Shown here in pieces: positions 12,279-62,613 of a stretch of 64,000 bases of DNA. The translations under genes and the position numbers were made by a program. This DNA comes from an uncultured Gammaproteobacteria bacterium (GTDB lineage Bacteria > Patescibacteriota > Patescibacteriia > UBA9934): NCBI GenBank assembly GCA_964414795.1, contig CAYPWV010000001.1, positions 5,221-69,220 of the forward strand, in the 5' to 3' direction. How positions within the stretch are numbered: the stretch's first letter is position 1; the number at the start of each line of letters is the position of its first letter. The notes beneath the pieces were generated by a model. It searched no databases, was not told the DNA's origin, and was given only the letters and a program-made list of their open reading frames with translations.

Positions 12279-12280
12279 AG

Positions 12281-12497
12281 GTGAGAGTGTGAAGTTTGTA
12301 GTTGTTAGTTTGAAGTGAGTGGATGTTGTTTTTTATTGGAATGAAAGACAGCAGACGACAGATGGGGAAAGTAATCGGGGCTGTATTGTATTTAGGTGAG
12401 CAGATCATTTCTCTTATCCGTCGTCTGCTGTCTGTAGTCTGCTATCTCAAAAGAACTACCTTTCACTTCAAACTAACAACTACAAACTTCAAACCTT
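12281..12497. repeat. Family C long palindromic element (~215 bp; arms AGTTTGAAGTGAAAGG.../...CCTTTCACTTCAAACT, core GACAGCAGACGACAGA.../...TCTGTCGTCTGCTGTC)
   Basis: Nested inverted repeats seen directly. It starts 3 nt after the murG start codon (its 5'-UTR side) and overlaps the last codons of pyrG. Confidence 0.75.
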
Positions 12498-20267: not shown

Positions 20268-20468
20268 AAGGAAAAGTTAGGAAGTTATTAGTTAGAAGCT
20301 TGAAGTGAAAGGTAGTTCCTTCGGGATAACAGACTACAGACAGCAAACGACAGATAAGAAATACCTGATTCTGATCACTTTCCCCATCTGCCGTCTGTAG
20401 TCTGCCGTCCTCACAAACAAAAACACCCTCCACTCACTTCAAACTACCGACTACAAACTTCAAACCCT
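20268..20468. repeat. Family C long palindromic element (full length)
   Basis: GAAGTGAAAGGTAGTTCC...GGAACTACC-like arms and GACAGCAAACGACAGA core. Lies between the divergent ctpA (starts 4 nt after the ctpA ATG) and PEGA genes. Confidence 0.75.
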
Positions 20469-20476
20469 TCCCTCCT

Positions 20477-32731: not shown

Positions 32732-34795
32732 ATGGTAACAGAATCTATGCGCCGTGTCTTTCTTGCTCTCACGTTTCTTTCCTGCGTTTCTCTGCTGGGA
32801 TCTGCGGTTTATTATACAAGCATCATTACACCAGGAACGCTCGTGCTGGCAACTTTAGGGGCGCTCTTGGTGACAGCGGGAATGGATCACTTCTTCGTCA
32901 TCCCGGATCAAGTCCGGCATGACGAAAAACAAAAAAACAAGATGACCGATACGGTGATCCGCCACTACGTTCTCTTCCTCATCGGTCTCTCCTCCCTCAT
33001 CATCTTTGTCTTCCTCGCGATCACCCATCCCATCACTACTGCTACCCGATCACTCTGGCTCCTCTTTTCTCCGACACACATTGTATTTTTGACGATCGCG
33101 TTTTTTTGTACGATTTTATTATATAAAAAACAAGAGGGCGGATACGTTGATCCGCCCCTACACGATCGACCGCCGCGGTACGCGGCGATTCTTGGCGGTC
33201 TGATTGCATTCGTCACGTCTGCACTTGCGGCGATACTCTTTCCACTAGGATTTGGATTCGATCCTTTTCTTCATCGCGCAACACTCGAGCACATCGCAAC
33301 ATTCGGAACCATCACGCCAAAACCACTGTATTACATCGGTGCGTACGCTCTTGAACTTTGTGGAAATCTTTTGCTTCGTATTCCATTATTTTCTCTTGAT
33401 GTTTTTTTGGCTCCAGTTGGATTTGCGTTTCTCGTTTTTATTGCAGTCCGTAGCAAGCAATTGCATCCCGCAATCCTCGCACTCCTTCCCTTTTCTGCAT
33501 TCGTGAGCACAACGCCGCAAGCCATAGGATTTTTGTGGATTTTTGCCGTGATTCTTGCGTTGAAAAATAATCTTCCGCAGTTGTATCTTTGGCTTTTTGC
33601 ACTTGCCGCACTTGCCGCGCATCCTATTGCCGGCGTTCCGGCGGTGATTTTGGTAACGATCTATTGTCTGTTGAACACGAAACGGAACAAAACGAACCAC
33701 GACAAGGTGGCCGATACGGTGATCGGCCACTACGGATCTATTCTTACCACCATTTTCATTATTCTCGGCATCCTCGCACTTCCGCTCATGTTCTTTGCGC
33801 AGCAGCTCATTACCGGCATGAACGTAGGATTTTCTTGGGTAGCGTTTACGGATTTTTCTCGCATTCCTTCTCTTGGATTTTTCTCGATGCAGGGACATGC
33901 GCTCATGGATACCGTCATGCTGTTTGGTGGAAATGTTTTTTTCATCACGGTGATTCTTGCAATTATTGGATTCATCGTGACTTTGGGTCAACGAAAAATC
34001 AATGCTAGATCTTTCGCACAATCACTCGCACTTTTGCTTGCAAGTATCGTTGCACTGGGTAACTTTGTGATGCTCAGTTTAGGATTTGATTTTCCGTTTC
34101 TCATTTCGTACGAACGTACCGATTTTGCGTTGCGACTGGTAACGATTGCGTGGATATTTCTTTTGCCCCTTGCGTCGGATGGAATGAAAAGGATTATAGG
34201 AATTGTGACGGAATGGAAATTACGCAAATCAGAAACACGATATTTAGAATCACATAGGGACGAATTGAGGACGTACGGGCGGGTTTTAAACCCGCCCCTG
34301 CATACGCGTCTAAAAAATGCCTACGGCATTTTACTCATTCTCATCCTTTTCTCCGCAAATATTTACACCACCTTTCCTCGACACGATGGCTACACGCGAT
34401 CGGCGGCGTTCAATGTTACTGTCGCAGATACCGAAATCGTCCACCGCATTGCCGATGATGCTGCAGGTGAATCCTACGCCGTACTCAGCAATCAAACGCT
34501 TGCTTCGATGGCTATCCAAGAATTTGGCTTTTTCCAGTACTTTCATAACAACATCTTCGCCTACCCCATCCCTACCAGCGGCCCACTCTACACGCTCTTT
34601 CTTACCATGATTACAACTCCCAATCTTGAAACTATTGCACAAGCTCACGATCTCACCGGCGCATCTCGCATCTACTTCGTGGTGCACAACTACTGGTGGG
34701 AAGCCGATCTTCGCATTGCCGAAACAAAAAAAATCGCAGACGCATATTTCACGTCTGCTGATGGAACGATTACCGTATTTGTCTTTTCCAGATAA
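32732..34795 (+). CDS. Large polytopic membrane protein of unknown function (about 690 aa). It has an internal protein-level duplication and in-frame copies of three different repeat families.
   Basis: More than 12 predicted TM helices. Start inferred at MVTESMRRVF. Repeats at 32896-32923 (A), 33136-33157 (F) and 34277-34297 (E) are all translated without stops. Confidence 0.5.
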   Translation: MVTESMRRVFLALTFLSCVSLLGSAVYYTSIITPGTLVLATLGALLVTAGMDHFFVIPDQVRHDEKQKNKMTDTVIRHYVLFLIGLSSLIIFVFLAITHPITTATRSLWLLFSPTHIVFLTIAFFCTILLYKKQEGGYVDPPLHDRPPRYAAILGGLIAFVTSALAAILFPLGFGFDPFLHRATLEHIATFGTITPKPLYYIGAYALELCGNLLLRIPLFSLDVFLAPVGFAFLVFIAVRSKQLHPAILALLPFSAFVSTTPQAIGFLWIFAVILALKNNLPQLYLWLFALAALAAHPIAGVPAVILVTIYCLLNTKRNKTNHDKVADTVIGHYGSILTTIFIILGILALPLMFFAQQLITGMNVGFSWVAFTDFSRIPSLGFFSMQGHALMDTVMLFGGNVFFITVILAIIGFIVTLGQRKINARSFAQSLALLLASIVALGNFVMLSLGFDFPFLISYERTDFALRLVTIAWIFLLPLASDGMKRIIGIVTEWKLRKSETRYLESHRDELRTYGRVLNPPLHTRLKNAYGILLILILFSANIYTTFPRHDGYTRSAAFNVTVADTEIVHRIADDAAGESYAVLSNQTLASMAIQEFGFFQYFHNNIFAYPIPTSGPLYTLFLTMITTPNLETIAQAHDLTGASRIYFVVHNYWWEADLRIAETKKIADAYFTSADGTITVFVFSR
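32896..32923. repeat. Family A minimal palindrome (CGTCATCCCGGATCAAGTCCGGCATGACG) in-frame in CDS
   Basis: Encodes FFVIPDQVRHDEK. Confidence 0.6.
33136..33157. repeat. Family F hairpin repeat GGGCGGATACGTTGATCCGCCC (in-frame in CDS; second copy at 63841-63862)
   Basis: Seen directly; encodes EGGYVDPPL. Confidence 0.6.
34277..34297. repeat. Family E hairpin repeat GGGCGGGTTTTAAACCCGCCC (in-frame in CDS; other copies at 42514-42536 and 47696-47716)
   Basis: Perfect palindrome seen directly; encodes GRVLNPPL. Confidence 0.65.
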
Positions 34796-35426: not shown

Positions 35427-35534
35427 CGTCATGCCGGACTTGATCCGGTCTGCCTGTCCGGTAGGCAGGCATCCATCGTTTTTAACCCCATCTTTCTTGA
35501 TGCGATGGATCCCGGGTCGGTGCCCGGGATGACG
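35427..35534. repeat. Family A palindromic element, full-length intergenic copy (CGTCATGCCGGACTTGATCCGG...CCGGGTCGGTGCCCGGGATGACG)
   Basis: Terminal inverted repeats and internal palindromes seen directly. Confidence 0.75.
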
Positions 35535-35540
35535 AAAAGC

Positions 35541-37909: not shown

Positions 37910-38090
37910 AGGTAGGGAAAGTTTGAAGTTTGGAGTTGGTAGTTTGAAGTGAAAGGATGTTCTGTTTTAGCGTGTCATCCTGAGGGAGTGCTACGTCGAC
38001 CGAAGGAACTTCCAGACGACAGACTGCAGAAGGCAGATGGGGAAAATGAAAGAACTGAGAGAACTGAGAGTGAGGATGGCATTAGTTAGT
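37910..38090. repeat. Family C element (left arm and core) with a nested family B half-copy (37968-38020)
   Basis: AGTTTGAAGTTTGGAGTTGGTAGTTTGAAGTGAAAGGATG arm is identical to the copy at 52305. The right arm is missing. It starts 3 nt after the GT4 start codon. Confidence 0.7.
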
Positions 38091-40366: not shown

Positions 40367-42454
40367 TTACCATGCGGACATCCACGTTCCGGCTACCGGA
40401 ACAATGTCCTTCAGCTCTCCCATAAGCGAGCCCTCTGGCGTCCATACCTGCACACTTCCCGCATGTCCATGCGGTGCGGTAACAATATCCCACACTCCGT
40501 CCACATCAATATCCGCAACAGAAACTGTGGTACCACCATCATCAGTTATATCGGTAATAAAAAACTCCTTCCAAAGTGCACCGATATAATTAAAGATACG
40601 CACATGCCCTGCACCTCCGGTAAGCGGACCAATCACAATTTCATCTCGTGCATCATCATCAAAGTCCCCTGCACTTAACGAAAGACCGGCGGTCATCTTT
40701 TCTGCATACGCAAGAAAATCTACCAGATGCGTTCCGTCTGCGTTATACACGGCAACACGAGGCTCGTGGTCTTGTGCAGCAATAACAATTTCTTTCTCCC
40801 AGTCTCGATCAACGTCCGCAACCGCAACGGTAAAGCGCGTCCCCTCTACAAATCCATCTACGGTAAATCGAGAAAATTCATTCCCGCTTTGATCAAAAAT
40901 AACCACATCATTACTTACTCCCGCGCCTACTGCAGTTACAATTTCTTCAATGCCATCTCCTGTTACGTCCCCAATCGCAGCTGAAACGCCCTGGAGCGAA
41001 GATTCGTCATACGCAAAGAATTGCTTCTTTAGCCCTCCTGATGCCGTAAAAACGCGCACTTGTGGTCCACCTCCTACGCCGGGCGTTGCAACAATTTCAA
41101 CGGCATTATCATCATTCAAATCGTCGGTTGCAGTCTGTACTCCCCCAGTAAATACTTCATCAAATGCAAGGAATGATGCATATTTTATACCGTCCGCACG
41201 CCACACATTTACCCACGGGGCACTTCCTGCGCGTGCCCCGAGCGCCATGTACGAATCATGTGCATCTGGGAAATCGTTGATTAGTTCGGTTGTGGTCGTG
41301 GTGTCTGTGGGATCAGATTGTATATCCGCCCCCGAAGACGTGGACGAACCCTGATTTGCAACTAGCACCCCCGCAGTTTCAAGTGCGCGAGCAATATTAA
41401 TGCGCCCCGCACCCAAAGATCCAGAGCCCGCAAAAGGATACGCAGGATCTACACTGAGTTTTAATGCGGAACGTACATTATCAACAGAAATAGTGGGATA
41501 CGCACTTTTCAAAAGCGCCGCAGCTCCTGCAACAATGGGGCTTGCCATAGACGTTCCGTTCCACGGTCCAATATACAAATCGCGATCATCCGCACTTGCT
41601 CCATCTTCGGCATACTCCAAACCAAAAATGTCTTCTCCGGGCGCTGCAATATCAGCGCAATCTGAACCGTAATTGGTAAAATCGCTTTCTTGATCGGCGC
41701 TATTTGTTGCCGTTACACCAATCACCCAATCAGCTGCATTACTACGCAAACATGCCGGATATACCGGCTCATCATTCACGTTTTGCGTATCGTTTCCGAG
41801 GGCCGCAACAACAACGACATCGTGTTCGTACGCATTCTGCACCGCATTACGTAACGATGCATTCGTTTCATTTCCTACAAAACTTAAATTAATAACATTC
41901 GCACCATTTTTTACCGCATAATTTATCGCAGTAGCGGCATCCGCTTCGCTTCCTGCGCCATTTTCATCCAAAATACGAATGGGCATAATATGCACATCCC
42001 ACGCAATTCCCGTATATCCTCGATGATTATTCCCTACTGCACCGATAATTCCCGCAACTACCGATCCATGCGATTGCGCGCTTGGATCAAGCGAATCTTC
42101 GAGCATAGGTTCTGGCACATTATCATCATCAACAAAATCCCATCCCTGCACATCATCAATAAAGCCGTTTCTATCATCGTCTTTATTATTATCGGAAATT
42201 TCTTTGGTATTTTCCCAAAGATTTACTTCTAAATCAGGGTGCGTAAGCGCAACACCGGTATCGAGCACCGCAACCACAACGCTATCACTTCCCGTTGTCA
42301 CATCCCACGCATCCGGAGCAGAAATATGAGGCAAATACCATAAATCTCCATACTGCGTATCATTGGGCGTACGAGCAAACGCCAAGGAAGGAATAAAAAA
42401 ACTCACACCGACGAGCACTGCACAGATTCTACGCATATAACCACAGTATGACAT
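40367..42454 (-). CDS. Secreted subtilisin-like serine protease (S8) with C-terminal FG-GAP/VCBS-like repeats
   Basis: Catalytic-triad regions VAVLDTGV (Asp), HGSVVAGIIGA (His), GTSMASPIVAGAAALL (Ser). Signal peptide. Repeated GD..GDGIEEIV / DFDDDARDEIV motifs. Confidence 0.8.
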   Translation of the reverse strand: MSYCGYMRRICAVLVGVSFFIPSLAFARTPNDTQYGDLWYLPHISAPDAWDVTTGSDSVVVAVLDTGVALTHPDLEVNLWENTKEISDNNKDDDRNGFIDDVQGWDFVDDDNVPEPMLEDSLDPSAQSHGSVVAGIIGAVGNNHRGYTGIAWDVHIMPIRILDENGAGSEADAATAINYAVKNGANVINLSFVGNETNASLRNAVQNAYEHDVVVVAALGNDTQNVNDEPVYPACLRSNAADWVIGVTATNSADQESDFTNYGSDCADIAAPGEDIFGLEYAEDGASADDRDLYIGPWNGTSMASPIVAGAAALLKSAYPTISVDNVRSALKLSVDPAYPFAGSGSLGAGRINIARALETAGVLVANQGSSTSSGADIQSDPTDTTTTTELINDFPDAHDSYMALGARAGSAPWVNVWRADGIKYASFLAFDEVFTGGVQTATDDLNDDNAVEIVATPGVGGGPQVRVFTASGGLKKQFFAYDESSLQGVSAAIGDVTGDGIEEIVTAVGAGVSNDVVIFDQSGNEFSRFTVDGFVEGTRFTVAVADVDRDWEKEIVIAAQDHEPRVAVYNADGTHLVDFLAYAEKMTAGLSLSAGDFDDDARDEIVIGPLTGGAGHVRIFNYIGALWKEFFITDITDDGGTTVSVADIDVDGVWDIVTAPHGHAGSVQVWTPEGSLMGELKDIVPVAGTWMSAW

Positions 42455-43389: not shown

Positions 43390-46300
43390 TTAGAACCGTA
43401 CTGATGAAGCACCGCTGAAGTCAGTGATGTCGACGAGGTATGCACCCCACCAGTCATCCTGGCCACCAACAGAACCGGACACACCATCATCCTTCCACAT
43501 GAAGGAAGCTGGCATGCGGTCAACGTCATCAGCCGCATCGTTGTTTGTACCAGCACTGTCACGTGCGGTGTTCAAGTAGCCACGAACAACGGTAAGGTCG
43601 TTCGTTGCAATGTTCACCAAGAGCATAAGCTCATCACCCGAAGCACAAGCGTTGTCAGCCGTGTCCATACAGAGAATATCTCCAATGGTGTAGGCAGCGC
43701 CGCTCGTTACACTGAGTGTAGTGTCAGTTGCTGTTACGTTGCTCTCGTTGAGGTCGCTTGCTGAGAGGAAGCTTGCTGCAGCAATGATCGGATCAGCTAC
43801 GATCTCGAACAATACGCTGTCATTATCAGCGCTTGCACCAGCCGCACTCATGTAGAGCGAATACGTCTTGGTGGTTCCCGCTGGAACAACTTCATCAGCA
43901 CTAAAGGTTGCCCGTACGTAAGTGAGATCTGCTGCGGTACCATCACACACTGCACCCGTAGACTTATAGAGAGTCCACGCTGCGTCTGCGGTGTCAAGAG
44001 CAGTCGTGAGGTTCGAACGATCATAGATGTCGAACTCAGTAGATGCCTTAACGTAGGTGCCAGGAGAAGAAGTATCACACGTATTCCAGTCAGATGCGGT
44101 CGTATCGGTAGCGGTCAACTTAAAGAGGACGCTATCCATAACCACATCTTCGCTAGAAGTTGCGGACACATTGAAACGAAGTACTTCAGGACGTCCACCT
44201 GCAACACCAGAGGTTGGGGAAGAGGAAGAACGAGCCACAGAAGGGTAAGATTCTTTTACTACGAAGGTAGGAACCAAATCGGTTGCGAATGCATCGTCAC
44301 CAATTGCGGATGCCTGATCATCGTCATCAAGAGTAGAACCCGATCCATCACCCGTTACCTGGAAGTTATCATCGCCCGTTGTGTCTACAAAGAGACCCAT
44401 ACGAACCATTTCGTTTGATGTTGCCGATCCACCAGACACACGGTCGGTAGAAGGAACATTCACATACACTTCAACATCGGTAGGTTCATCAACTGCTACA
44501 GGGATCGAGAGACCCGAGAAGCGAGCTGCATTTCCTGACATAGATGCGCTTGGAGCAGAACCCTCCATGCCATCCCATGCAAGAGAAACCGTGGAAACGT
44601 TGTTTGCATATGCACTTGAATCTGCAGTTCCTGTATCATCCTCAGCTTGCTCTTCAGAGAAGGAAAGCGTGTTGATAGTGAATGCTTCGTTCGTTGCCGT
44701 GAAGCGGTACGTTCCTACGTGGTTGTTTGAAGAACCGGTACGAAGGAAGTCTGCATCTGGCATGTCTGCAGCAACTGCTACAGAGAGCGATCCGGATGCG
44801 TTTACCGAAACAATGTTTGTTGCTGCGGTACCACCGTTTACTGCATCACCCGTTGCCGTTACCGTGTCACCATCTTCATCTTCTGCGGTAATGTCGGCGC
44901 TAACGTCGGCAAGATCAAAAGAGAGATAGGTAACCGTAGCTTCGGAAGGGTTTGCAAGATTACACTCTACATTCAAGGTAACTACATCGGATGATTCAAG
45001 GATCCAATCCATGTTGTCGAAGGTGATGGTGTTACCCGTTGAAGCAGGAGCTTCAGGACCACCTACAAGCGTACTGCCATCGTAAAGAGAGCAGGACTCA
45101 ACATAATCTTCTACCTGACCATCTGTTTCACCACCAAGTACCAACGTGGTGTCGTCAGCATCTCCATAAGCGGAGAGCACAATGTCGGTAACCGTTACAT
45201 CGGAGGAGTCACCTGCCGTTACAGTAAAGCCTACAACCGTATGGCTGTCGGTACCCTGAACGGTCGTGGTGTCACCTGGCGTAGAAGCCAAAGCGATTGT
45301 AAGGGAAGCGGACAATGCTTCTTGGTTATAACCGGTAAGGTCAGAACCAGGAACGATGTCAGATCCAGAAAGTGCGTCACCATTGCCGTCTTCGATCGAA
45401 AGACCGGAAACGTCAAGAGCAGCAGCAAATTCGGTACCCGAAGTTGCAGAGCTATCAATGTCTGCAGTAACTGCAAGGTTCAAGGTTGAACCCGCTTCAA
45501 TTGTGGTGTCGTCCGTGAAGTCGATGGTTTGATCTGCGTCATCACCTGCGGTGACTGCAGAATCAAGTTCCAAAGGACCCATGAATACAGCACCGGTATC
45601 TACGTTGATGATCTTGATATCTTTCAAGTTTGCATCAGCCGTGTTGATCAAACCGTCAGCATCAGAAGCTGCGGCACCAGAGGAATCATCTACTGCATCA
45701 GTTGCATCGTTATCGCCGTCGTCATCACCGTACACGATGATGTCGAGGTCCTTAACGGTAACTTCCTGAGCTGCGGTAAGAGAGAACTCCAAGAGAACCT
45801 GATCTTGACCATCAACCTGAACGTCGCCTGCGGAAGGACCATTAAATGCGAACGTTACTTCGCCACCCTGCACGGTACTGAATGAACAGTTACCGGAAGA
45901 AGTGGTACAAGAAGTACCGTCGTATGAACCGGAGTCTGCGGAAGCGATGTACACCGTGAGGCCATGACCGTAGTCACCACCCTCAGCAACAACGTCAATC
46001 GCATTGTCTACGAATACCTTAACGGTATCTGCATCTTGACCACCGATATCAGCGGAAAGACGGAAGATATTGCTGTCACCTTCTTCGATGTCAAATGGAC
46101 TATCGGAAAGATCACAAACAACCTGATCGCTCACGGTGTTTTCACACACAACGAGCCATTCAGAACCATCCCATAGGTTGTAATCTGAGTGATCGGAAGC
46201 GTTATCAACCTTGAGGGTGATAAGTTCTACCGAAGCATCTTCAGAACCCGTTGCATCGATTTTGAACTCTGCAATTTCTGCATCGTCTTCACCGATGGTT

Positions 46301-47523
46301 GGGTTATCAATGGTACCCGTCTTGGTAATGGTTACGTTACCGGAATCAGATCCAGAAAGCGTAAATTCATCACCAGAAACTGGGAAGTCTCCGTCTACAT
46401 CACCAGAAGCGGTGATCATCTCTGCAGATTCAATTTCGAATCCGAAAGTGTCAGCCGCGGTTTGAGACGCAGAAACGGTTACCTTGACATCAAGAGTTAC
46501 CGTTTCACCTGCAGGGATCTCCACATCAAGCGAACTCATAGTAACTTCGCGTGTAGAAGAGTTCACCGTGCGAGATTCGGTAAGACGCGTTGCACCTTCG
46601 TAAAGGTACACTGCAGCAATATTGGTGGTAGCACCTGCACCTGTTAAGGAGAGGACAAGACCATCAAGTGTTGCATCCTCAGAACCTGCTTCAACGTCGA
46701 AAGAGAATACTTCAACGCCATTTGCGCCACCTGTTACGGTGGAACCTACTGGCATAGAAGAAGCTTCGGAGATAGTGATATCACCCGTTGTAGTAGGCTC
46801 ATCAGTTTCTTCGGTTTGTGCAGCATCTACAAGAGAGGTCACTTCCGAAGAAATGTCATCACCTGCAGTAAGTGCGCTGTCATCGATGCCGGAACCATCC
46901 AAAACGAATTTGGACATAAGACCATTAGCATCCATGCCATCATCACTTACCATACGCATTTCATCATCCCATGAAAGGTACGTATAGCTACCAGACTCGT
47001 AAAGAGCTCCTTCGTATACGGTAGCCTCCATAAGAGAGGTGCCTACGGTGTAATCTGCAAAGAATACATCAGGAACGTCAACAACTCGGCTGCTCCAATC
47101 GGAACCGGCAAAGTCTTCAGCGACGTCTTCAGATTCAATCCAGTGGAGCATGCCGTCGCGAGCAACTGCATACACACTTTCATCAGACTGTACCTTTACC
47201 CACCAAGAACCAGGACGCATAACCACGTTACCACCAAGGGTAATGTCGGAAAGAGCGCTGTCGGAGATGGTAGATACATCATCAAAGTCAGCGTACCAAG
47301 AGAAGAACGTGGTTTCGTTAGGGAATACGTAGCGCTCGCCGTCATAACCGTAGTAATAAACGGTGGAGAGAGACGTTCCCTTGATGAGATCGCCAGCAGA
47401 AGCTGCGCTCACCGATGCAGGGGAAACAAGAAGGCCTGCACCTACGGAGAAAGCAATGGTCGCCGCAGCTACTGCTGCAGAGAAAACACGCTTACCCGTT
47501 TGAAGAACATGTTGCATAAGCAA
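43390..47523 (-). CDS. Giant secreted acidic repeat protein (1377 aa), putative cell-surface/S-layer-like or adhesin
   Basis: Signal peptide (AFSVGAGLLVSPASVSAASA), then repetitive Thr/Ser/Asp/Gly-rich beta-type segments. No stops over 4.1 kb. Confidence 0.7.
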   Translation of the reverse strand: MLMQHVLQTGKRVFSAAVAAATIAFSVGAGLLVSPASVSAASAGDLIKGTSLSTVYYYGYDGERYVFPNETTFFSWYADFDDVSTISDSALSDITLGGNVVMRPGSWWVKVQSDESVYAVARDGMLHWIESEDVAEDFAGSDWSSRVVDVPDVFFADYTVGTSLMEATVYEGALYESGSYTYLSWDDEMRMVSDDGMDANGLMSKFVLDGSGIDDSALTAGDDISSEVTSLVDAAQTEETDEPTTTGDITISEASSMPVGSTVTGGANGVEVFSFDVEAGSEDATLDGLVLSLTGAGATTNIAAVYLYEGATRLTESRTVNSSTREVTMSSLDVEIPAGETVTLDVKVTVSASQTAADTFGFEIESAEMITASGDVDGDFPVSGDEFTLSGSDSGNVTITKTGTIDNPTIGEDDAEIAEFKIDATGSEDASVELITLKVDNASDHSDYNLWDGSEWLVVCENTVSDQVVCDLSDSPFDIEEGDSNIFRLSADIGGQDADTVKVFVDNAIDVVAEGGDYGHGLTVYIASADSGSYDGTSCTTSSGNCSFSTVQGGEVTFAFNGPSAGDVQVDGQDQVLLEFSLTAAQEVTVKDLDIIVYGDDDGDNDATDAVDDSSGAAASDADGLINTADANLKDIKIINVDTGAVFMGPLELDSAVTAGDDADQTIDFTDDTTIEAGSTLNLAVTADIDSSATSGTEFAAALDVSGLSIEDGNGDALSGSDIVPGSDLTGYNQEALSASLTIALASTPGDTTTVQGTDSHTVVGFTVTAGDSSDVTVTDIVLSAYGDADDTTLVLGGETDGQVEDYVESCSLYDGSTLVGGPEAPASTGNTITFDNMDWILESSDVVTLNVECNLANPSEATVTYLSFDLADVSADITAEDEDGDTVTATGDAVNGGTAATNIVSVNASGSLSVAVAADMPDADFLRTGSSNNHVGTYRFTATNEAFTINTLSFSEEQAEDDTGTADSSAYANNVSTVSLAWDGMEGSAPSASMSGNAARFSGLSIPVAVDEPTDVEVYVNVPSTDRVSGGSATSNEMVRMGLFVDTTGDDNFQVTGDGSGSTLDDDDQASAIGDDAFATDLVPTFVVKESYPSVARSSSSPTSGVAGGRPEVLRFNVSATSSEDVVMDSVLFKLTATDTTASDWNTCDTSSPGTYVKASTEFDIYDRSNLTTALDTADAAWTLYKSTGAVCDGTAADLTYVRATFSADEVVPAGTTKTYSLYMSAAGASADNDSVLFEIVADPIIAAASFLSASDLNESNVTATDTTLSVTSGAAYTIGDILCMDTADNACASGDELMLLVNIATNDLTVVRGYLNTARDSAGTNNDAADDVDRMPASFMWKDDGVSGSVGGQDDWWGAYLVDITDFSGASSVRF

Positions 47524-51063: not shown

Positions 51064-52302
51064 CTATTGTATCGCCTCCGTATAGATGCCAAAAAGACCC
51101 TCCCAATGTTTATCCGGATCCCCTACCGCTATCCCTCGTACAGCGGCCTGGAGACGCATCTCTTGCACAGCGGAGGCGTTTTTATCGCCTTCAGAAGCAA
51201 GGAGAAAACGGATGTGTTTCTCCCACACATCAAGCGCATCCGGATGCTCCACAAACCCTGAAATGCCATGCTCCACAATCTCCGATAATCCCCCTTCGCT
51301 GCTCACGATTACGGGAGTTCCCAGCGACAATGACTCAAGCCCAACAAGACCAAAAGGCTCAGGCCACCGCGACGGCACAATAACGCCTGCCGCATGCTTG
51401 ATCATCTCCCAAAGTGCTTGAGGCGTTTGCACAGAAAGTACAGAAAGATTTTTTCTCTTGGCTGCAAGTTTGCGAAGCGGTTCTTCCTGAGCGCCATGAC
51501 CTACACATACAAACGTAACGTCCGGCATACGCACCACCAGCTCCATAAGTACATCAACGCCTTTATACGTTTCAAAACGACTAGCGAAAATAATTTGGGG
51601 GATACGATGTGTTCGTACGGGCGGAACATTTTCCGCCCCTACAGATGCTCCCGATGGCAACGGCAACACACGAATATTCATAGCGCGATACCCCCCATCA
51701 GTGAGTGCTTTTTTTACGGCATGCGATGCGGTGAGAATGTGCGTTACACCTTGCGTCCACATACCACACCTTTTTTGCACACGGACGACCGCATCCACAA
51801 CGCCCGTTGCAAACGCCGAATTTTTTATGCATTTCGTTCTCACCACGTCGCGCCACGACGCGTGCGCAGACAACGGACCCACGCCATCAAACAATCCGTA
51901 ATTTGCGCTGATATATCCGTAATCGTGCGCCGTGAGCACCACGGGAACACCCGCATCTTTTGCAGCACTCAGCACTGACGGCGAGAGATGTGTGTATAGA
52001 TTATGCGCGTGAATGACATCGGGCTTGAACGCAGCAATTATTGCGCGTGTTTTTTTATACGCTTCGTAACTCCAGAGTGTTCTTCCTAATTGTCGCAACG
52101 CCTGTATCCCCTTCCCCACGCCTGAGGTTTCAAGATTGCTTACAAAAAAATGCTCCCACGGTGAAGTATTATTTTCCGGATGATGCATGGCGAGCACGGC
52201 CGTTGCGTGGCCATGTGCATCCGCCAGGCGCATCACATCGTGCATATATCTCCCCACGCCATCGCGTTCGTGGTTGTATTTGTTAATGTGGAGAATGCGC
52301 AT
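51064..52302 (-). CDS. Glycosyltransferase family 4
   Basis: MRILHINKY...GVGRY N-domain, EPFGLVGLESLSLGTPVI C-domain motif. Confidence 0.8.
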   Translation of the reverse strand: MRILHINKYNHERDGVGRYMHDVMRLADAHGHATAVLAMHHPENNTSPWEHFFVSNLETSGVGKGIQALRQLGRTLWSYEAYKKTRAIIAAFKPDVIHAHNLYTHLSPSVLSAAKDAGVPVVLTAHDYGYISANYGLFDGVGPLSAHASWRDVVRTKCIKNSAFATGVVDAVVRVQKRCGMWTQGVTHILTASHAVKKALTDGGYRAMNIRVLPLPSGASVGAENVPPVRTHRIPQIIFASRFETYKGVDVLMELVVRMPDVTFVCVGHGAQEEPLRKLAAKRKNLSVLSVQTPQALWEMIKHAAGVIVPSRWPEPFGLVGLESLSLGTPVIVSSEGGLSEIVEHGISGFVEHPDALDVWEKHIRFLLASEGDKNASAVQEMRLQAAVRGIAVGDPDKHWEGLFGIYTEAIQ

Positions 52303-52304
52303 AG

Positions 52305-52508
52305 GGGAGAGTTTGAAGTTTGGAGTTGGTAGTTTGAAGTGAAAGGATGTTTTTTTTGTTGGATGAAGATGAAAGACAGCAGACTACAGACGACAGATTA
52401 GTGAAGTGATCAGAATCAGATATCTTTCATCTGTCGTCTGCTGTCTGTATTCTGTTATTTCAAAGGAACTACCTTTCACTTCAAACTCTTAACTTATAAC
52501 TTCACACC
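52305..52508. repeat. Family C long palindromic element (full length)
   Basis: Arms AGTTTGAAGTTTGGAGTTGGTAGTTTGAAGTGAAAGGATG / GGAACTACCTTTCACTTCAAACTC. Core GACAGCAGACTACAGACGACAGA / TCTGTCGTCTGCTGTCTG. It starts 3 nt after the GT4 start codon and overlaps the Wzy-like gene stop. Confidence 0.75.
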
Positions 52509-54038
52509 TTCCCCATCATCACTCTTCACCCTCGACACCACAAAGCCACACAACACCCACACATACGGTGCCATGGTGCGGACTTCGAAAAAAGTGGCGA
52601 GGAAGGCGTTGAGGGAAAAAGCAACGAGAATTGCTGCCGTGGCTCCGGCAACGGCGCGAATGTCTTTATCTTCGTGATGGAGTGCGGTATGCACACACAA
52701 TAAAAACAAACTGATATAAAACCACAGAAAAGCGCCTAGTCCGATAATTCCAAGCTCGCCCCACAAACTCAACCAATTGTTATCAATATATCCGCCGGTT
52801 CCGTACACACCAAAAGGCAAACTTAAGCGATCGTACACGAGTGTATTCCCCAGTGCCGCAGCCGCACCACCTCCATACTGTCCAGGACCCACACCAAACA
52901 ACGGCGATGACGGCACCACGGTAAGCACGGTTTCCACAACCCAATAGAGGCGACCAAACCCGACATATTCCCCCCGCCAACGTTCGTAAGAAAATGCTTC
53001 AAAGAAACGTTCCGCAACCGTCTGCTCCGGAGTATCGGTAAGCGTGTTTACGAGAAGATTGCTGCCGAAGATGTAGGCCGCTAAAAGAAACGGTGCGATC
53101 ATTGCACACCACAACACGCGCTTATCTTTTTTAAGGAAAATGGCGTAGAAAAGAAAAGCGAGCAAAAATCCAAACCATGCAGAACGCGAATACGTTAACA
53201 CGAGCACAGGAATACCTAGCGCAAGAAGAACCATGCACGCTATTTTTGCCTGCTTTCCTAAACGCTTATCGTATAAAAAGGCAATGGTGAGCAAAAATAC
53301 GAGCGCCAAAAAAATACCCAACTGATCGTAACGCCCCATGGTGCCAAACACACGCTGCCCAGGATCCCAAAATTGATCGGTGCCTTCGGTGAGTTGGATG
53401 TTGCCGAGTGTTCTACGTTCTGAGGGGAGCAAAAAAGCATCGAATGATCCACCAGCAATAGCCTGCAATCCACCGATGGCAACTTGGATGCCCGCAACGG
53501 TTATCAAAATAATCAACAGTGATTTCATCCATTGTTTTGAAGGGGCAAGTTGCACTACGACAAAAAACAAAAGTAAGAAACGAATAAGCTGCCGCGCGCC
53601 AAGGAGCGCAATTGCCGGATCAATAACGTTCACCACAACAGACGCAACAATGGCTACCAAAAAAAAGAAAAATGGTGCATCAAGTGCTGAACGCTTCCAT
53701 TTCTTCTCATGCCAAAACATGTGCAAGAGCACTGACGCTACAAGCATGTACACCACAAGCTCAGAACCATAGCGCGCAAGGACATACACTTCATCGGGAA
53801 TCCACTTCAAAATAAACGGCTCAAACGGCAAATACGCAAGCAATCCCAAAAGCACCTGCTGCGGACGCCACCAGGCAAGTGCAATAAGCGCAACTCCTGC
53901 CGTAAGCGCAATCGTTACTGCGGGAGACGTGAATAACGACAAAAATAATGCACCGCCCACAATGGCAAATAGCACGATCATGGCAATGCGTGCCTTGGTA
54001 TCTGCAAGAAGGATATGAAGGTGAAGATGTTGCCGCAT
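52494..54038 (-). CDS. O-antigen ligase/polymerase family (Wzy-like) membrane protein
   Basis: About 12 TM helices. LTYSRSAWFGFLLAF motif is typical of the Wzy_C / O-antigen ligase domain. Confidence 0.65.
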   Translation of the reverse strand: MRQHLHLHILLADTKARIAMIVLFAIVGGALFLSLFTSPAVTIALTAGVALIALAWWRPQQVLLGLLAYLPFEPFILKWIPDEVYVLARYGSELVVYMLVASVLLHMFWHEKKWKRSALDAPFFFFLVAIVASVVVNVIDPAIALLGARQLIRFLLLFFVVVQLAPSKQWMKSLLIILITVAGIQVAIGGLQAIAGGSFDAFLLPSERRTLGNIQLTEGTDQFWDPGQRVFGTMGRYDQLGIFLALVFLLTIAFLYDKRLGKQAKIACMVLLALGIPVLVLTYSRSAWFGFLLAFLFYAIFLKKDKRVLWCAMIAPFLLAAYIFGSNLLVNTLTDTPEQTVAERFFEAFSYERWRGEYVGFGRLYWVVETVLTVVPSSPLFGVGPGQYGGGAAAALGNTLVYDRLSLPFGVYGTGGYIDNNWLSLWGELGIIGLGAFLWFYISLFLLCVHTALHHEDKDIRAVAGATAAILVAFSLNAFLATFFEVRTMAPYVWVLCGFVVSRVKSDDGEGVKL

Positions 54039-54705: not shown

Positions 54706-55830
54706 TTAGTATACCAGCTCTTCCCATGTACCTAACGTTACGCTCATGTCTTTTACTTCCCCGCCGCGGGCAACTTGCAGAGTGACTTCTTGGCCAGGGG
54801 CGTACGTGGCAAGAATATCTGCGCACGTAACGGTTCGCGTAATACGCGTGTCATCCAAAGAAAGAATGATGTCGCCATTTGTTAAACCTGCACGATCTGC
54901 AGGACCATCTTTTACCACCGCGCTTCGCTCCCCTGCTTGCGCGATAACGAGTGCGCCCTCGGTGTACCCTTGTGTGAGCTCTGGATCGAGAGAAGAAATA
55001 CGCGAAAGATCCGCAAGAGAAACGCCGAGTGCGGCGTGGGCAATAGGCGACCCACGAAGTGCTTGTTTTACAAACGGACGAAGAGCTTGCGCAGGAATAA
55101 CGGTTCCGTCTTCTTCAACAAAACCAAACAGCCGTGTTTGCGAGGTAAGAAACGGTGTTCCGGGAGATGCCTCTTGCGCAATACGCCATACGGCACTTGG
55201 CTCTTCTGCAGAAACAATGCCATCCACACTTTGCATATCACGACTGACGACCGACGATGCATAAACCTCTCCTAAACTTCCTACACCAAAGATAGGAGCC
55301 CCAAGAAAGATCTCATCGCTTGCCGCAAGCTCAACCGGAGTCCAGCCTTGCGCATCTTGCACATGTATTGCAACCGCATCTGTTTGCGTATCTTCCACTA
55401 CCTTATCAGGAATAAACATTTCGCTTCCTCGCATCACCGAAAAACCGGTGTATCCGCCTTTTTTATCTGCATACCGCGCAAGCTGTGCACGTGTTGTGAG
55501 CATCCATCCATCCGCACTTACAACGACTCCTTCACCGTACACAAAATCATCTCCGAAAAGAAAAGGGCTTTGCGTTGCGTACGGGGTATCTACATCAACT
55601 ACATACACCACCGAATTCAAAACGGTTTCTTGTACTGCAGCAAGTGATTCTTCGAGCGTTGTGGGATTGAGTGCATGTTTTAAGGGAGTAAGTACCGCAA
55701 AGCGCCGATCATCTAAAAGAGATGCCGCATAGCGCTCGAGTGAATTACTCACAAGTACCGCCGAAGCCGTTCCTGCAAGCGCGGCTGCGAGAAGGGTGAG
55801 AAGAAAGATGAAGGGAAACTTTTTTTCCAT
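54706..55830 (-). CDS. Trypsin-like/PDZ (HtrA-like) secreted protein, possibly catalytically degenerate
   Basis: Signal peptide, trypsin-like fold segments and a C-terminal PDZ-like region (GLTNGDIILSLDDTRI). I could not identify the canonical GNSGGPL motif. Confidence 0.45.
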   Translation of the reverse strand: MEKKFPFIFLLTLLAAALAGTASAVLVSNSLERYAASLLDDRRFAVLTPLKHALNPTTLEESLAAVQETVLNSVVYVVDVDTPYATQSPFLFGDDFVYGEGVVVSADGWMLTTRAQLARYADKKGGYTGFSVMRGSEMFIPDKVVEDTQTDAVAIHVQDAQGWTPVELAASDEIFLGAPIFGVGSLGEVYASSVVSRDMQSVDGIVSAEEPSAVWRIAQEASPGTPFLTSQTRLFGFVEEDGTVIPAQALRPFVKQALRGSPIAHAALGVSLADLSRISSLDPELTQGYTEGALVIAQAGERSAVVKDGPADRAGLTNGDIILSLDDTRITRTVTCADILATYAPGQEVTLQVARGGEVKDMSVTLGTWEELVY

Positions 55831-55837
55831 ATTTGAT

Positions 55838-55919
55838 CGTCATGCCGGACACCCACCTCCGCTAAAGCTACGGTTGGGCAGGCCGATTCGGCATCTTTGA
55901 TTTTTAACTAATTTTTCTT
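55838..55919. repeat. Family A element, left part, disrupted by the IS insertion (right part at 57894-57933)
   Basis: CGTCATGCCGGAC...TTTTTAAC...TTTTTCTT on the left; TTTTTCTT-TATGCGATGGATCCCGGGTCAAGCCCGGGATGAC on the right. Confidence 0.7.
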
Positions 55920-55966
55920 GGAGACTATCCCTTGACAGCACCTATACCACGTGTTAATATAGTGGC

Positions 55967-56824
55967 ATGAAAACGCTGACTACAAGAGAATTCAATAAGA
56001 AATATACCAATGACGACGCTTGTCTTCAAGCTATTTTTGTAGCTCGATACGGTGGAGAAATATGTCCTTTCTGTCATAAGGAAGCGAATTTTTATAAATT
56101 AAATGGGCGAAAATGTTATCTCTGTTCTGTTTGCAAAGAGCATATTTATCCGTTGGCGGATACCATTTTTCACAAATCAGACACTCCTCTTAGAAGTTGG
56201 TTTGAAGCTATTTATAAGTTTGCCAATAGCCGTAATGGTGTAGCCGCTACCGAACTACAACGTGATCTTGGAGTGACCTATAAATGTGCATGGCGTATGG
56301 CGCGACAAATTCGTTTGCTATTTGAAACGAATAATCTTTTCCTGTCTGGCACGGTCGAAGCAGATGAGACATATGTCGGCGGCAAGCGGCGTGGTATTCG
56401 TGGTCGTGGTGCGAATGGTAAAACTCCGGTGTTCGGTATTGTAAAGCGCGGCGGTGAAGTCTTTGCTAAAACTGTGTCAAACGTGAAGGCATCAACTGTC
56501 ATGCCGTTAATCCGTAAGAATGTAAAGATTGGTACAACCGTAATGACGGACGAGTTCGGTATCTACAACAATACGAGACAATCCGGATACAGACATGAGC
56601 GTGTCAACCACGGAGCTAGGGAATACGTCCGTGGCGAAGTTCACACTAATACGATCGAAGGCTTCTGGTCACAGATGAAGCGGTCAATAGACGGTACACA
56701 CCACTCTGTAAGTTCTAAGCACCTCCAACACTACGTCGATGAATTCGCTTTTCGCTATAACCATCGGAACGCTTCATCTTTCCTTTTTGATCTGATGCTC
56801 GAACGGGCTGTGCAGCGATTTTAA
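55967..56824 (+). CDS. IS1595/ISXO2-like DDE transposase
   Basis: N-terminal Zn-ribbon (CPFCHK...CSVCKE), ISXO2-like core (EADETYVGGKRRG...GIVKRGGEV...MTDEFGIYN...HERVNHGAREYVRGEVHTNTIEGFWSQMKR). Confidence 0.9.
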   Translation: MKTLTTREFNKKYTNDDACLQAIFVARYGGEICPFCHKEANFYKLNGRKCYLCSVCKEHIYPLADTIFHKSDTPLRSWFEAIYKFANSRNGVAATELQRDLGVTYKCAWRMARQIRLLFETNNLFLSGTVEADETYVGGKRRGIRGRGANGKTPVFGIVKRGGEVFAKTVSNVKASTVMPLIRKNVKIGTTVMTDEFGIYNNTRQSGYRHERVNHGAREYVRGEVHTNTIEGFWSQMKRSIDGTHHSVSSKHLQHYVDEFAFRYNHRNASSFLFDLMLERAVQRF

Positions 56825-56896
56825 TAATCGCATCAAAATCTTCGACAGTTATAGCCTTATTTTTAGCGGGTTTATTTTTCATATCTTAATAATACA

Positions 56897-57856
56897 CTAA
56901 TCTTCTACAGTTTTGGTATTCTTCATTTCGATCTCTTTTTCACTTTCGACCCTTTGCTGTCTTAGAGAGGGTTGATTTAATGTTTCAATTATCTTTATCG
57001 CCGGTGTGACAATGGCTATACCCATGTTGACATTTTTTTCTTCCTCTTTTTTCGCATCTTCATCAGAAGGTAAATTATCAATCGCATCTTCAGAAGTCGG
57101 ATAATGCCCATGGATTAAACCTCCTAACCAAAATGGTCTCCCTCCTACATATGTCGTTCCGTTCTTTTGATTCGGTTCTTGAAAAAAAACAGGAGATCCA
57201 CTGATTCCGCCGATTGACCTCGCTTCTATAAGATACGCATCAATCTCACCATAGCTGGAAGTTTTTATTTTTTCTTGGGAGAGCATCGCGACATTTCCGG
57301 TTCTGACAATGGGAAGATTCTTCTTTTGTCCGTAGTGTCTACTAAATAAACCGGTAATGAATACCTCATTTCCTATCCCGATTTTACCATCTTTAATATG
57401 CTCCTCTGTTAATAACATCTCAATAGGAATCGTCATAACGTCATGTCTCTCTCTATCAAGAGAAAAAGGAATAACTACAACATCAGCGGGATTGTTATCG
57501 TGATCCGGATGCTCGAACCAATCCGCTGAACCCCCTAAACTAACGATATCTTTTCCTCCGTCGTGTGTATTTATGCTAATTCTTAAATTATCCAGCCCAT
57601 ACTTTTTTACTTTTGCGATGTTATGATGAGCAGTAACTAAGTAAATGAAGCCAAGATTTTTATTTACATCTGAAGGAATGGAAACTAAGAATCCCGTTCC
57701 ACCAAAATGACAACTTTTTACATTTTTCTCATCAGTTTGTTCGATCCCGATAAAGACAACACACTTTAAAACTTCATCCGGTATGAACATATTCCAATCT
57801 TTTGGCGGACTTAGATAATAGCGGACAACGCCGCCTAAACGGGTGTCGCTAATCAT
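56897..57856 (-). CDS. Cytoplasmic trypsin-like serine peptidase (S1, Trypsin_2-like), passenger gene of the IS
   Basis: Catalytic His (YLVTAHHN), Asp (NPADVVVIPF), Ser (GGISGSPVF). No signal peptide or TM seen. Confidence 0.7.
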   Translation of the reverse strand: MISDTRLGGVVRYYLSPPKDWNMFIPDEVLKCVVFIGIEQTDEKNVKSCHFGGTGFLVSIPSDVNKNLGFIYLVTAHHNIAKVKKYGLDNLRISINTHDGGKDIVSLGGSADWFEHPDHDNNPADVVVIPFSLDRERHDVMTIPIEMLLTEEHIKDGKIGIGNEVFITGLFSRHYGQKKNLPIVRTGNVAMLSQEKIKTSSYGEIDAYLIEARSIGGISGSPVFFQEPNQKNGTTYVGGRPFWLGGLIHGHYPTSEDAIDNLPSDEDAKKEEEKNVNMGIAIVTPAIKIIETLNQPSLRQQRVESEKEIEMKNTKTVED

Positions 57857-57943
57857 ATCGTTCGTATTGAGGTGCTGTCAAGGGATAGTCGCCTTTTTCT
57901 TTATGCGATGGATCCCGGGTCAAGCCCGGGATGACAGGACTTA

Positions 57944-58720
57944 TTAGCGCCACGGCGTAGTGAGAAATAACAGCAGCAGAAGCGCTCCTGCAAAAAGACT
58001 ATGACGCAACAACAATCGACGATGCACTTTTTGAAATGCGTGCGCACGCATAATGCCTAAGTACCATGCAGCGCATACTGCGAACACTGCAGCATTGGTA
58101 GTATATCCTGTTGGCAACCATGAACACGCAACGTAAATCTCGGTAAGGAGCAACGCACCAATACCTGCGTACATCCTTCCGGCCTCCCAGCTAATTTTAC
58201 TTACCCAAAATACCGCAACAAACACCGCAAACGTTATGAGCGCCATCACGAGCGCCATTGCCCACACCGGTGCTTCCAAAAATACTTGTGCGAGATACGT
58301 TGCGCTTGTGGTAAAAAACAATCCCCCTACCGCAAGCATGAGTGAAAGATATTCAAGCGAATAGGCTTGGTAGGTGCGTGGAAGATGATAAAAAGCAAAA
58401 ATATTTTCTGCAAAAAGTGCGAGACCGAGCGTTACCGCTCCGGCAAGAACCCATTTTGTTCCATCGCTTTCTAGGAGGAGAAAAAATGCGAGTGAAGACA
58501 AGAGGAGAAAAAGAGGCATGCCGAGAAATACCCAAAACCCTGTTCTCCGCACATCCCATACTAACAATCTTGCAAAGAGCAAAAGGATAAGACCGAAACA
58601 GATAAGCGCAGGGATGCCCCACGTAAACGGCGCAATAATAAGCACGATGAATCCCGCTGCGGCAAGGAACGCAATGGCAAACGGGGTAAGACGATGAAGA
58701 AAAATCACAGCGTAAGCCAA
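57944..58720 (-). CDS. Polytopic membrane protein, unknown function
   Basis: 258 aa, about 8 TM helices. Confidence 0.4.
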   Translation of the reverse strand: MAYAVIFLHRLTPFAIAFLAAAGFIVLIIAPFTWGIPALICFGLILLLFARLLVWDVRRTGFWVFLGMPLFLLLSSLAFFLLLESDGTKWVLAGAVTLGLALFAENIFAFYHLPRTYQAYSLEYLSLMLAVGGLFFTTSATYLAQVFLEAPVWAMALVMALITFAVFVAVFWVSKISWEAGRMYAGIGALLLTEIYVACSWLPTGYTTNAAVFAVCAAWYLGIMRAHAFQKVHRRLLLRHSLFAGALLLLLFLTTPWR

Positions 58721-61002: not shown

Positions 61003-61416
61003 TGGTGGACCCGGGGGGAATTGAACCCCCATCCGTACCACATTCTCCAAAACTCTTTCTTCCAAGCTCATTCGCGTTTAAACGGTTAACGTCTTTTTCG
61101 GTCGAGAAACACGACGAACAGTGAAACCGACGATCATGCAGCAAGAGTCCCGGGCGTAAGGCATGATGCTCACACACAGCAAGTCAGAGATTTATTGCAT
61201 GACGGTGTTATGTACTGACGACATAACGGTCATGGGTGGCGGCGTTATTACGCGGCGACCGGAGCAAATGAGAACGCGCGAGTCGCCGAAGCGAAAGCGG
61301 TCTTCATTTGTGAAAATACGTTTGCATGTACTTTCTGAGGCGTGTGATGACGCGGAACGCCTCGTCCGCGGCTTGAGAGGGATTGGGAATGTAGACGTCG
61401 AAAGCCTAGCAGGCCC
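61003..61416 (-). ncRNA. ssrA: tmRNA (SsrA)
   Basis: 3' tRNA-like end GGGGGUUCAAUUCCCCC-CGGGUCC-ACCA. The 5' GGGCCUGCUAGGCUUUCGACG pairs with the 3' acceptor strand (with two G-U wobbles) and resembles the E. coli 5' end. Internal reading frame GCA AAC GUA ... CCG GUC GCC GCG UAA UAA. Convergent with smpB. Confidence 0.8.
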
Positions 61417-62473: not shown

Positions 62474-62559
62474 ATCACAAGATCCTGAGCTCGGCGAAGG
62501 ATCTAGCGAACGAATAAGAGATATCTGACAAATGGGTTCTCTGGACCCTTCCTATCGTC

Positions 62560-62600
62560 AGGGTCTTTCCATTCACTTCAAACTCTTAACTTCATACTTC
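62560..62600. repeat. Family C right-arm remnant (CACTTCAAACTCTTAACTTCATACTTCAACC)
   Basis: Matches the right arm of the copy at 52470-52508. Lies between rpmI and rplT. Confidence 0.55.
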
Positions 62601-62613
62601 AACCTCTCTCCAT

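Follow-up and report, generated by a model that had tools for sequence, protein, structure and literature searches.

An apparently intact IS1595-family transporter insertion sequence with a serine protease passenger in a Candidatus Uhrbacteria chromosome

We analysed a 64,000-nucleotide stretch of contig CAYPWV010000001.1 (assembly GCA_964414795.1; hereafter the window) and found within it a mobile element of 1,974 bp, at 55920-57893, in which an IS1595-family transposase gene faces a convergent serine protease gene. The element is an apparently intact insertion sequence (IS) of the passenger-carrying type known as transporter IS (tIS), its protease is a bona fide and recurrent cargo, and it is inserted in a host repeat. 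Judging from its sequence it is probably still active, and it resides in the chromosome of a member of Candidatus Uhrbacteria (Patescibacteria). Taking structure, expression and function together, we regard as the best explanation, and as moderately probable, that this is a tIS with promoters in its inverted repeats and a protease that acts as a conflict effector.

The boundaries of the element are set by its terminal inverted repeats and the target site duplication (Table 1). The left (IRL) and right (IRR) repeats match at 23 of 24 positions, where the chance expectation for such matches in the 64-kb window is 0, and they are flanked by a perfect 8-bp duplication, as in the IS1595 family. A preliminary description of the region had read both features in the same way. 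It had also placed the insertion at 55838-57933, a span that does contain the element, but the mobile unit proper is shorter and the remainder consists of the two halves of an interrupted repeat. When the flanks were rejoined without one copy of the duplication, they were 84% identical (97/116 columns) to an intact repeat of ~110 bp at 35427-35535, which has the palindromic ends GTCATGCCGGAC…CCCGGGATGAC, and the alignment runs unbroken through the insertion point. The earlier view that the insertion splits a palindromic repeat is thus borne out. No further copies of the inverted repeats, transposase or protease were found in the window. The GC content of the element, noted earlier as low, is 40.9% against 47.0% for the remaining window, about 2 standard deviations low; the deviation is modest, with 6.6% of equal-sized windows reaching as low a value.

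Table 1 Features of the element and of the interrupted host repeat (positions in the window).
Feature	Position	Strand	Basis or detail
Left part of interrupted ~110-bp palindromic host repeat (like a miniature inverted-repeat transposable element)	55838-55911	.	Opens with GTCATGCCGGAC, like the intact copy at 35427
Left target site duplication, 8 bp, TTTTTCTT	55912-55919	.	Direct sequence reading; 8/8 match by script
Left terminal inverted repeat (IRL), GGAGACTATCCCTTGACAGCACCT	55920-55943	+	24 nt
Promoter-like site in and after IRL: TTGACA, 17 nt, TAATAT	55932-55960	+	10/12 matches, extended TG
IS1595-family DDE transposase, 285 aa, N-terminal zinc ribbon	55967-56824	+	Pfam and NCBIfam profile matches
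55-aa open reading frame, antisense to transposase 3' end, just past protease stop	56715-56882	-	List of open reading frames
Passenger serine protease, 319 aa, H78/D125/S219	56897-57856	-	Alignments, model, PADLOC PDC-S45 match
Inward promoter-like site in right repeat: TTGACA, 18 nt, TATGAT	57852-57881	-	11/12 matches
Right terminal inverted repeat (IRR), GGCGACTATCCCTTGACAGCACCT	57870-57893	-	24 nt, one mismatch to IRL
Right target site duplication, 8 bp, TTTTTCTT	57894-57901	.	Identical to left copy
Right part of interrupted host repeat (…GGATCCCGGGTCAAGCCCGGGATGAC)	57902-57935	.	Comparison of the repeat family in the window

The transposase is of the ISXO2/IS1595 type. It matched Pfam DDE_Tnp_IS1595 (2.5e-47, 161 bits, cutoff 27) and NCBIfam transpos_IS1595 (6.9e-63, 212 bits, cutoff 75), confirming the family named in the preliminary description, and its N-terminus matched Zn_ribbon_IS1595 (1.1e-07, 32.1 bits, cutoff 25.4). 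In an alignment of 30 sequences, the four zinc-ribbon positions C33, C36, C53 and C56 are invariant, and the protein keeps every other invariant residue as well, including D133, D195 and E231. This DDE transposase with its zinc ribbon stands between the 24-bp repeats, and insertion into an AT-rich 8-mer gave the 8-bp duplication. Near-identical copies of the element were absent from the databases, the nearest transposase being 65% and the nearest protease 59% identical to those of the window.

The protease open reading frame (ORF) lies wholly within the element, as a tIS passenger does; it is the single cargo gene, placed between the transposase stop codon and the right repeat and convergent to the transposase gene. 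Alignments of 49-51 homologues showed that H78 (in TAxH), D125 (DVAV) and S219 (GGISGSP) are invariant, along with R185, E211, R213, G250 and P285; in the alignment of 49 sequences, H251 and N277 do not vary either. The homologue alignment served to build an AlphaFold2 model, which was confident (mean predicted local distance difference test (pLDDT) 90.1, predicted template modelling score 0.89), and Foldseek matched it to thrombin, DegS and HtrA1 with E of about 1e-7 and probability 1.00. The model and alignments thus identify the passenger as a PA-clan serine protease with the chymotrypsin double-barrel fold and an intact His-Asp-Ser triad, in line with the S1/Trypsin_2-like assignment made earlier. 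A sequence search of solved structures gave nothing significant (best E 0.5).

The passenger shares its fold and triad with HtrA, DegP, DegS and other PA-clan proteases, but differs from the HtrA family in several respects. No PDZ domain was matched, inspection revealed neither a signal peptide nor a membrane anchor, in keeping with a cytoplasmic protein, and the family has motifs of its own, GLIHGHW and VNMGIAIV. In the model the C-terminus forms a long helix and residues 253-276 form an acidic loop of low confidence. A separate regulatory or targeting domain at the N-terminus, a possibility raised earlier, was not found in the model, where residues 1-25 form only short strands (pLDDT 87-90) and the strand pattern of the protease body starts at about residue 27.

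The family is large: after clustering at 50% identity, 3,760 representatives match at E <= 1e-30 and 7,422 at E <= 1e-10. It occurs in two forms, a long one, to which the window protease belongs and which has a 22-aa N-terminal extension, and a short one whose first residue corresponds to Met23. Among defence profiles, PADLOC PDC-S45, a single-gene system with a trypsin-like fold, matched the protease at E 5.6e-19 over profile positions 20-283 of 293, near-full-length, although the match is distant at 66 bits. The LmuA profile matched weakly (3.6e-05) and only at its N-terminal positions 15-160 of 425; the SMC-like LmuB partner that stands beside the effector in Lamassu is absent, the element comprising the transposase and protease alone. 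A distant match to phrog_7688 (5e-22) links the protease to a profile of unassigned function, and a tblastn search of phage genomes with the protease found nothing.

The protease gene may have lost part of its 3' end. A 13-nt direct repeat, ACTGT(A/C)GAAGATT, occurs there twice, 62 nt apart (56836-56915, minus strand), and removal of 62 nt fuses the protease to the 55-aa ORF, adding 45 aa that overlap the transposase 3' end in antisense. The restored tail matches the tails of homologues only weakly. The 55-aa ORF may be a displaced remnant of the C-terminal tail, cut off by a small duplication, a reading of the sequence that we hold to be uncertain.

We compared the element with its relatives by scanning species-representative genomes with a transposase profile, which gave 80 loci from Patescibacteria, Chloroflexota, Acidobacteriota, Proteobacteria, Verrucomicrobiota and other phyla. 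A script that searched for inverted repeats and target duplications delimited 48 elements, including that of the window, with lengths of 1,379-4,786 bp; elements of ~1 kb, the length estimated for a transposase alone, were not among them. In 43 related genome elements a perfect 8-bp duplication accompanies the motif GGnnAnTATCCC(C)TTGACA. The target duplications average 82% A+T, compared with 51% in the flanks, consistent with insertion at the AT-rich centre of the host repeat in the window. All but one of the 48 elements contain, besides the transposase gene, one or more ORFs of 70 aa or longer, mostly convergent to it and starting beside the right repeat.

The three transposases nearest to that of the window, at 62-65% identity, come from elements of ~2 kb. 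These are bounded by the same repeat motif and each hold one passenger, which differs between them: RelA_SpoT in L005, which has perfect 26-nt repeats and an 8/8 duplication, P63C in L006 and L007, and an uncharacterised 260-aa protein in L008. Across the clade the cargo is heterogeneous and mostly unannotated, and its recognisable share is dominated by conflict-type genes. P63C was counted three times, PIN and MerR twice each and the PDC-S45 protease three times; Peptidase_M78 (capP-like), SocA_Panacea, RelA_SpoT, EcoRI, DUF4258, DUF433, NYN and DUF3800 also occur, and further defence-profile matches include RmrA, PDC-S33, PDC-M69B and PDC-M24B. The window element is a member of a multi-phylum IS1595 clade that has a common repeat motif and variable cargo.

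The terminal sequence GGAGACTAT… and the pattern GGnnA(T/C)TAT fit the consensus ggnnatTAT of the ISNwi1 subgroup, of which the element may be a candidate member. Passenger-carrying members of this subgroup are 1.75-4.75 kb long, a range that overlaps the 1.4-4.8 kb observed here. The PGAP names on plasmids read "IS1595 family transposase" only, with no subgroup.

The same protease recurs as cargo within this clade. Elements in Thalassospiraceae (L074) and Acidimicrobiales (L087) have homologous proteases (33% and 30% identity by tblastn) in the same position and orientation, and these also match PDC-S45, with a best E of 5.5e-25. A scan of Joint Genome Institute (JGI) metagenomes with a protease profile yielded 80 loci, of which 23 have a convergent IS1595-type transposase downstream of the protease, usually directly after it; counting just the loci whose sequence reaches 1 kb or more past the protease, the share is 21/52 (about 40%). 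Twelve of the 23 enclose both genes between repeats that match at 21-24 of 24 positions and read GGTAATTATCCCTTGACAGTAGGT, with perfect 8-bp duplications, and the minimal ones measure 2,016-2,043 bp, similar to the window element. Of the 23 IS-linked loci, 21 have the right-repeat motif directly ahead of the protease gene. Every IS-borne protease is of the long form (23/41 long against 0/12 short, Fisher p = 4.8e-4). The preliminary description had made the passenger proposal depend on the unit recurring elsewhere with its repeats and duplications, and L074, L087 and 23/80 metagenome loci provide this. Since the same layout recurs, the protease is a true passenger, and the sequences make it one recurrent cargo of IS1595 elements.

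In 12 related tIS that carry the protease, longer ones included, the space between the two genes held no conserved partner gene. Two longer protease-carrying elements share an extra gene of ~153-155 aa with 81% identity (L151, 2537-2998; L161, 2893-3360; coordinates on the reverse complement); it has a lipoprotein-like N-terminus, lies between transposase and protease in opposite orientations and does not occur in the other elements. Pairwise divergences of transposase and protease are poorly correlated (Pearson 0.30, Spearman about 0), and the nearest relatives of the window transposase have cargo other than a protease, all protease-linked ones being more distant. The window protease, in turn, is closest to two copies that are not in an IS. 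These relationships suggest repeated exchange or capture of cargo and not a single ancient pairing.

Next, we considered how the two genes might be expressed. The best two promoter-like sites of the region are those embedded in the two inverted repeats. On the left, the -10-like hexamer ends 6 nt ahead of the transposase ATG, and TTGAC is kept in 45/49 left repeats compared with 24/49 right repeats. Counted from the left end, the ATG of the transposase is found at position 47-48 in 11 elements (window, L005, L016, L025, L026, L027, L034, L047, L070, L072 and L104) and at position 59-73 in about 24 more; in most of those 11, the window element included, it begins exactly 6 nt past the -10-like hexamer. 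This spacing predicts, and for the clade suggests, a leaderless or nearly leaderless transposase mRNA, which would be transcribed from the left-repeat promoter. In about 15 of 40 elements the right end mirrors this geometry, the cargo having an in-frame start codon at a distance of 43-54 nt. Transcription of the cargo could start at this mirror-image right-repeat promoter, enter by read-through from a host gene (57944-58720), or do both; this host gene is co-directional with the protease and immediately upstream, and no convincing terminator was seen between it and the element.

At eight right ends (L140, L151, L153, L155, L161, L164, L005 and L025) the cargo frame is open through the right repeat, with an in-frame TTG within the TTGAC of the repeat. 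With the frame open, translation could begin inside the right repeat, and host ORFs lying upstream might even be fused to the cargo.

What the protease does is the less certain part of our explanation. We propose that it is a conflict effector, most likely one of abortive infection or phage defence, which once activated would cleave host or phage proteins and thereby favour retention and spread of the element. The defence reading draws on the matches to PDC-S45 and LmuA and on the conflict-type cargo of sister elements, and we place abortive infection or defence, taken as the specific role, a little short of an even chance. The earlier idea of a mobilised effector gains indirect support from the near-full-length PDC-S45 match and the weaker LmuA match.

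Several observations weigh against this explanation. The defence role is putative, and PDC-S45 itself is listed, in the one paper found to mention it, as a hypothetical member of the "Phage Defense Candidates". No sensor domain can be recognised in the protease and it lacks a conserved partner gene, so that a mechanism of activation is not evident. Against Pfam Trypsin_2 it scores 19.6 bits, under the curated cutoff of 27.6; we identify it as a PA-clan protease in spite of this because of the invariant triad, the confident model and the Foldseek matches. The two nearest homologues (57-59% identity) lie outside any IS, and neither the repeat motif nor a transposase was found near them. The promoter geometry is awkward as well. 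The window protease ATG (57856-57854) begins 38 nt inside the right end of the element, where the predicted -10 hexamer overlaps it, so the right-repeat promoter could give at most the short form, starting at Met23, and not the conserved long form, for which transcription from outside the element would be needed. Finally, a single copy of the element was seen, with no empty site, which leaves recent mobility to be inferred.

An alternative is that the protease serves transposition itself, for example by processing or degrading the transposase or a host factor, and does nothing for the host. The adjoining of an IS1595 transposase in about 40% of sampled family members with enough flank, the restriction of IS carriage to the long form and the abutting of the ORF on the right repeat would all suit such an accessory. 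The closest transposases, however, have unrelated cargo (RelA_SpoT, P63C and the L008 protein), which implies that the protease is dispensable for transposition in the clade; identities of the two proteins are barely correlated, and many family members lie outside any IS. We therefore hold this role to be improbable. Alternatively, the protease might stabilise the IS in the genome, as a selfish addiction or toxin module or by attacking competing mobile elements, and not be directed at phages. This would fit the clade cargo typical of toxin-antitoxin systems, namely PIN, DUF4258 with DUF433, SocA_Panacea and RelA_SpoT. A type II system has an adjacent antitoxin, whereas the window element has no second recognisable gene, the remaining ORF being the doubtful one of 55 aa. 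The minimal elements likewise show no antitoxin-like partner, and their transposase and protease genes are 72-97 nt apart (window, L104, L126 and L134), so that we consider this reading unlikely, if somewhat less so than the accessory role. The cargo could also be a decaying hitch-hiker, captured by chance and now without function, as its single copy, the possible C-terminal truncation by a 62-nt duplication and the promoter geometry might indicate. Such decay sits poorly with a full-length ORF that keeps every family-invariant residue, triad included, and with a pairing seen again, its ORFs intact, in over 20 independent elements, and we give it little credence.

A tIS with repeat-borne promoters and a protease acting as conflict effector remains the explanation we favour, and it can be extended to the clade, in a form that is tentative and on balance doubtful. 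The IS1595 clade would then be a dedicated ~2-kb vehicle for immune or toxin effectors of one or two genes, with mirror-image promoters that express the cargo, often leaderless, and the long-form protease would be an abortive-infection effector spreading across phyla mainly on these elements. If true, the smallest transposons would, besides large islands and Tn7-like elements, be significant carriers of immunity, in the reduced genomes of Patescibacteria too.

We then compared the element with known systems. Passenger-carrying tIS are described for the IS1595 and IS66 families in the TnCentral preprint (10.1101/2021.05.26.445724), and the ISsaga paper (PMC3129680) cites Siguier, Gagnevin & Chandler 2009 for passenger-carrying IS1595. 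The window element resembles the tIS of IS1595 in its one DDE_Tnp_IS1595 transposase, short inverted repeats, 8-bp duplication and a passenger unrelated to transposition, and differs in that the passenger is a PDC-S45-like serine protease and that no other transposase in the databases exceeds 65% identity to its own. The preliminary description took a passenger to be unusual for IS1595, a point we do not share, as tIS are a described class and every delimited relative is longer than the transposase-only estimate. The accessible papers contained no report of a PDC-S45-like serine protease as an IS1595 passenger and nothing specific on IS1595 together with defence cargo, the 2009 IS1595 paper itself being outside the search.

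Variable cargo regions are also a feature of Tn7-like transposons with defence cargo. These are much larger and have a multi-protein transposition machinery, whereas the IS1595 elements here have a single transposase and measure 1.4-4.8 kb. A 2021 study by Benler and colleagues (PMC8649781) announces in its title an enormous diversity of defence systems among the cargo genes of such transposons.

The element itself is thus an ordinary case of a described class, the tIS of IS1595. What appears to be new is the protease family as passenger, its frequent carriage by IS1595 elements and the regular cargo position with promoters embedded in the repeats. A large uncharacterised protease family that is often IS1595-borne offers a concrete candidate for a single-gene effector, and the clade provides natural examples of cargo exchange at one position in a ~2-kb transposon that is computationally easy to delimit. 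The promoter geometry of the repeats suggests a route for expression of the cargo, and the case shows that an IS which appears intact and introduces conflict-type cargo can reside in a genome of Patescibacteria.

The near-identical repeats, perfect duplication and intact ORFs suggest that the insertion is fairly recent. Interruption of the host repeat, which had earlier been taken to date the insertion as recent, shows only that the repeat predates the element. No empty-site allele was found: both public assemblies with an identical HtrA-like protein (SRR16481186 and SRR16481187) have the IS at the site, and the search returned no database record of the neighbour gene on the other side of the element, which encodes a membrane protein of 258 aa.

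The genes around the element are chromosomal housekeeping genes, including LigA, RecJ and CTP synthase. The window CTP synthase is 81% identical to its nearest named relative, from Candidatus Uhrbacteria, and its other named relatives are from Patescibacteria. Directly upstream of the element, at 54706-55830 (-), lies a 374-aa HtrA/DegP-like protein with a PDZ domain, so that the trypsin/PDZ protein noted there earlier is present. We rejected a link between it and the passenger, the gene being a host gene outside the inverted repeats and in the normal gene order of the host. Its PDZ domain is clear, the similarity in its protease domain is weak (Trypsin_2 25.8 bits, under cutoff), and visual inspection shows …LTTRAQL… in place of the usual catalytic-His motif; judged from its sequence, the protein may be a pseudo-protease.

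The two homologues nearest to the passenger protease, neither of them in an IS, have settings of their own. One sits after a class II aminoacyl-tRNA synthetase gene, and the second closest (57%, L004) is followed at 1255-1290 by a look-alike of a tRNA-gene 3' end (GGTTCGAATCCCTTCGCACCCGCCA). The tRNA-like sequence hints at an island integrated beside a tRNA gene.

The interrupted host repeat belongs to a family with palindromic ends GTCATSCCGGR … YCCGGSATGAC, comprising the intact copy at 35427-35535, shorter or partial copies at 32895-32925 and 31395-31440, and the interrupted copy (55838-55919 / 57902-57935). An inverted pair with similar ends (TCCGTCATCCCGCGGCTTGACCGCGGGATCC) occurs in Dongia sp. 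(L044) at 882-917 and 6549-6584, and the terminal motif of the repeat may be widespread. A second intergenic repeat family has mirrored arms GAAGTTTG…GTTTGAAGTGA / TCACTTCAAAC…CAAACTTC and CAGAC/GTCTG-rich cores, with at least five copies between genes (12276-12502, 20281-20472, 37910-38051, 52300-52515 and 62559-62611). Elsewhere in the window, a tmRNA gene at 61003-61416 (-) matches Rfam RF00023 with 86 bits and is the sole Rfam family at gathering threshold. A 695-aa subtilisin/mycosin-like protease is encoded at 40367-42454 (-), matching TIGR03921 at 1.6e-52, below cutoff, and its gene adjoins a 1,377-aa ORF of no assigned nature at 43390-47523 (-).

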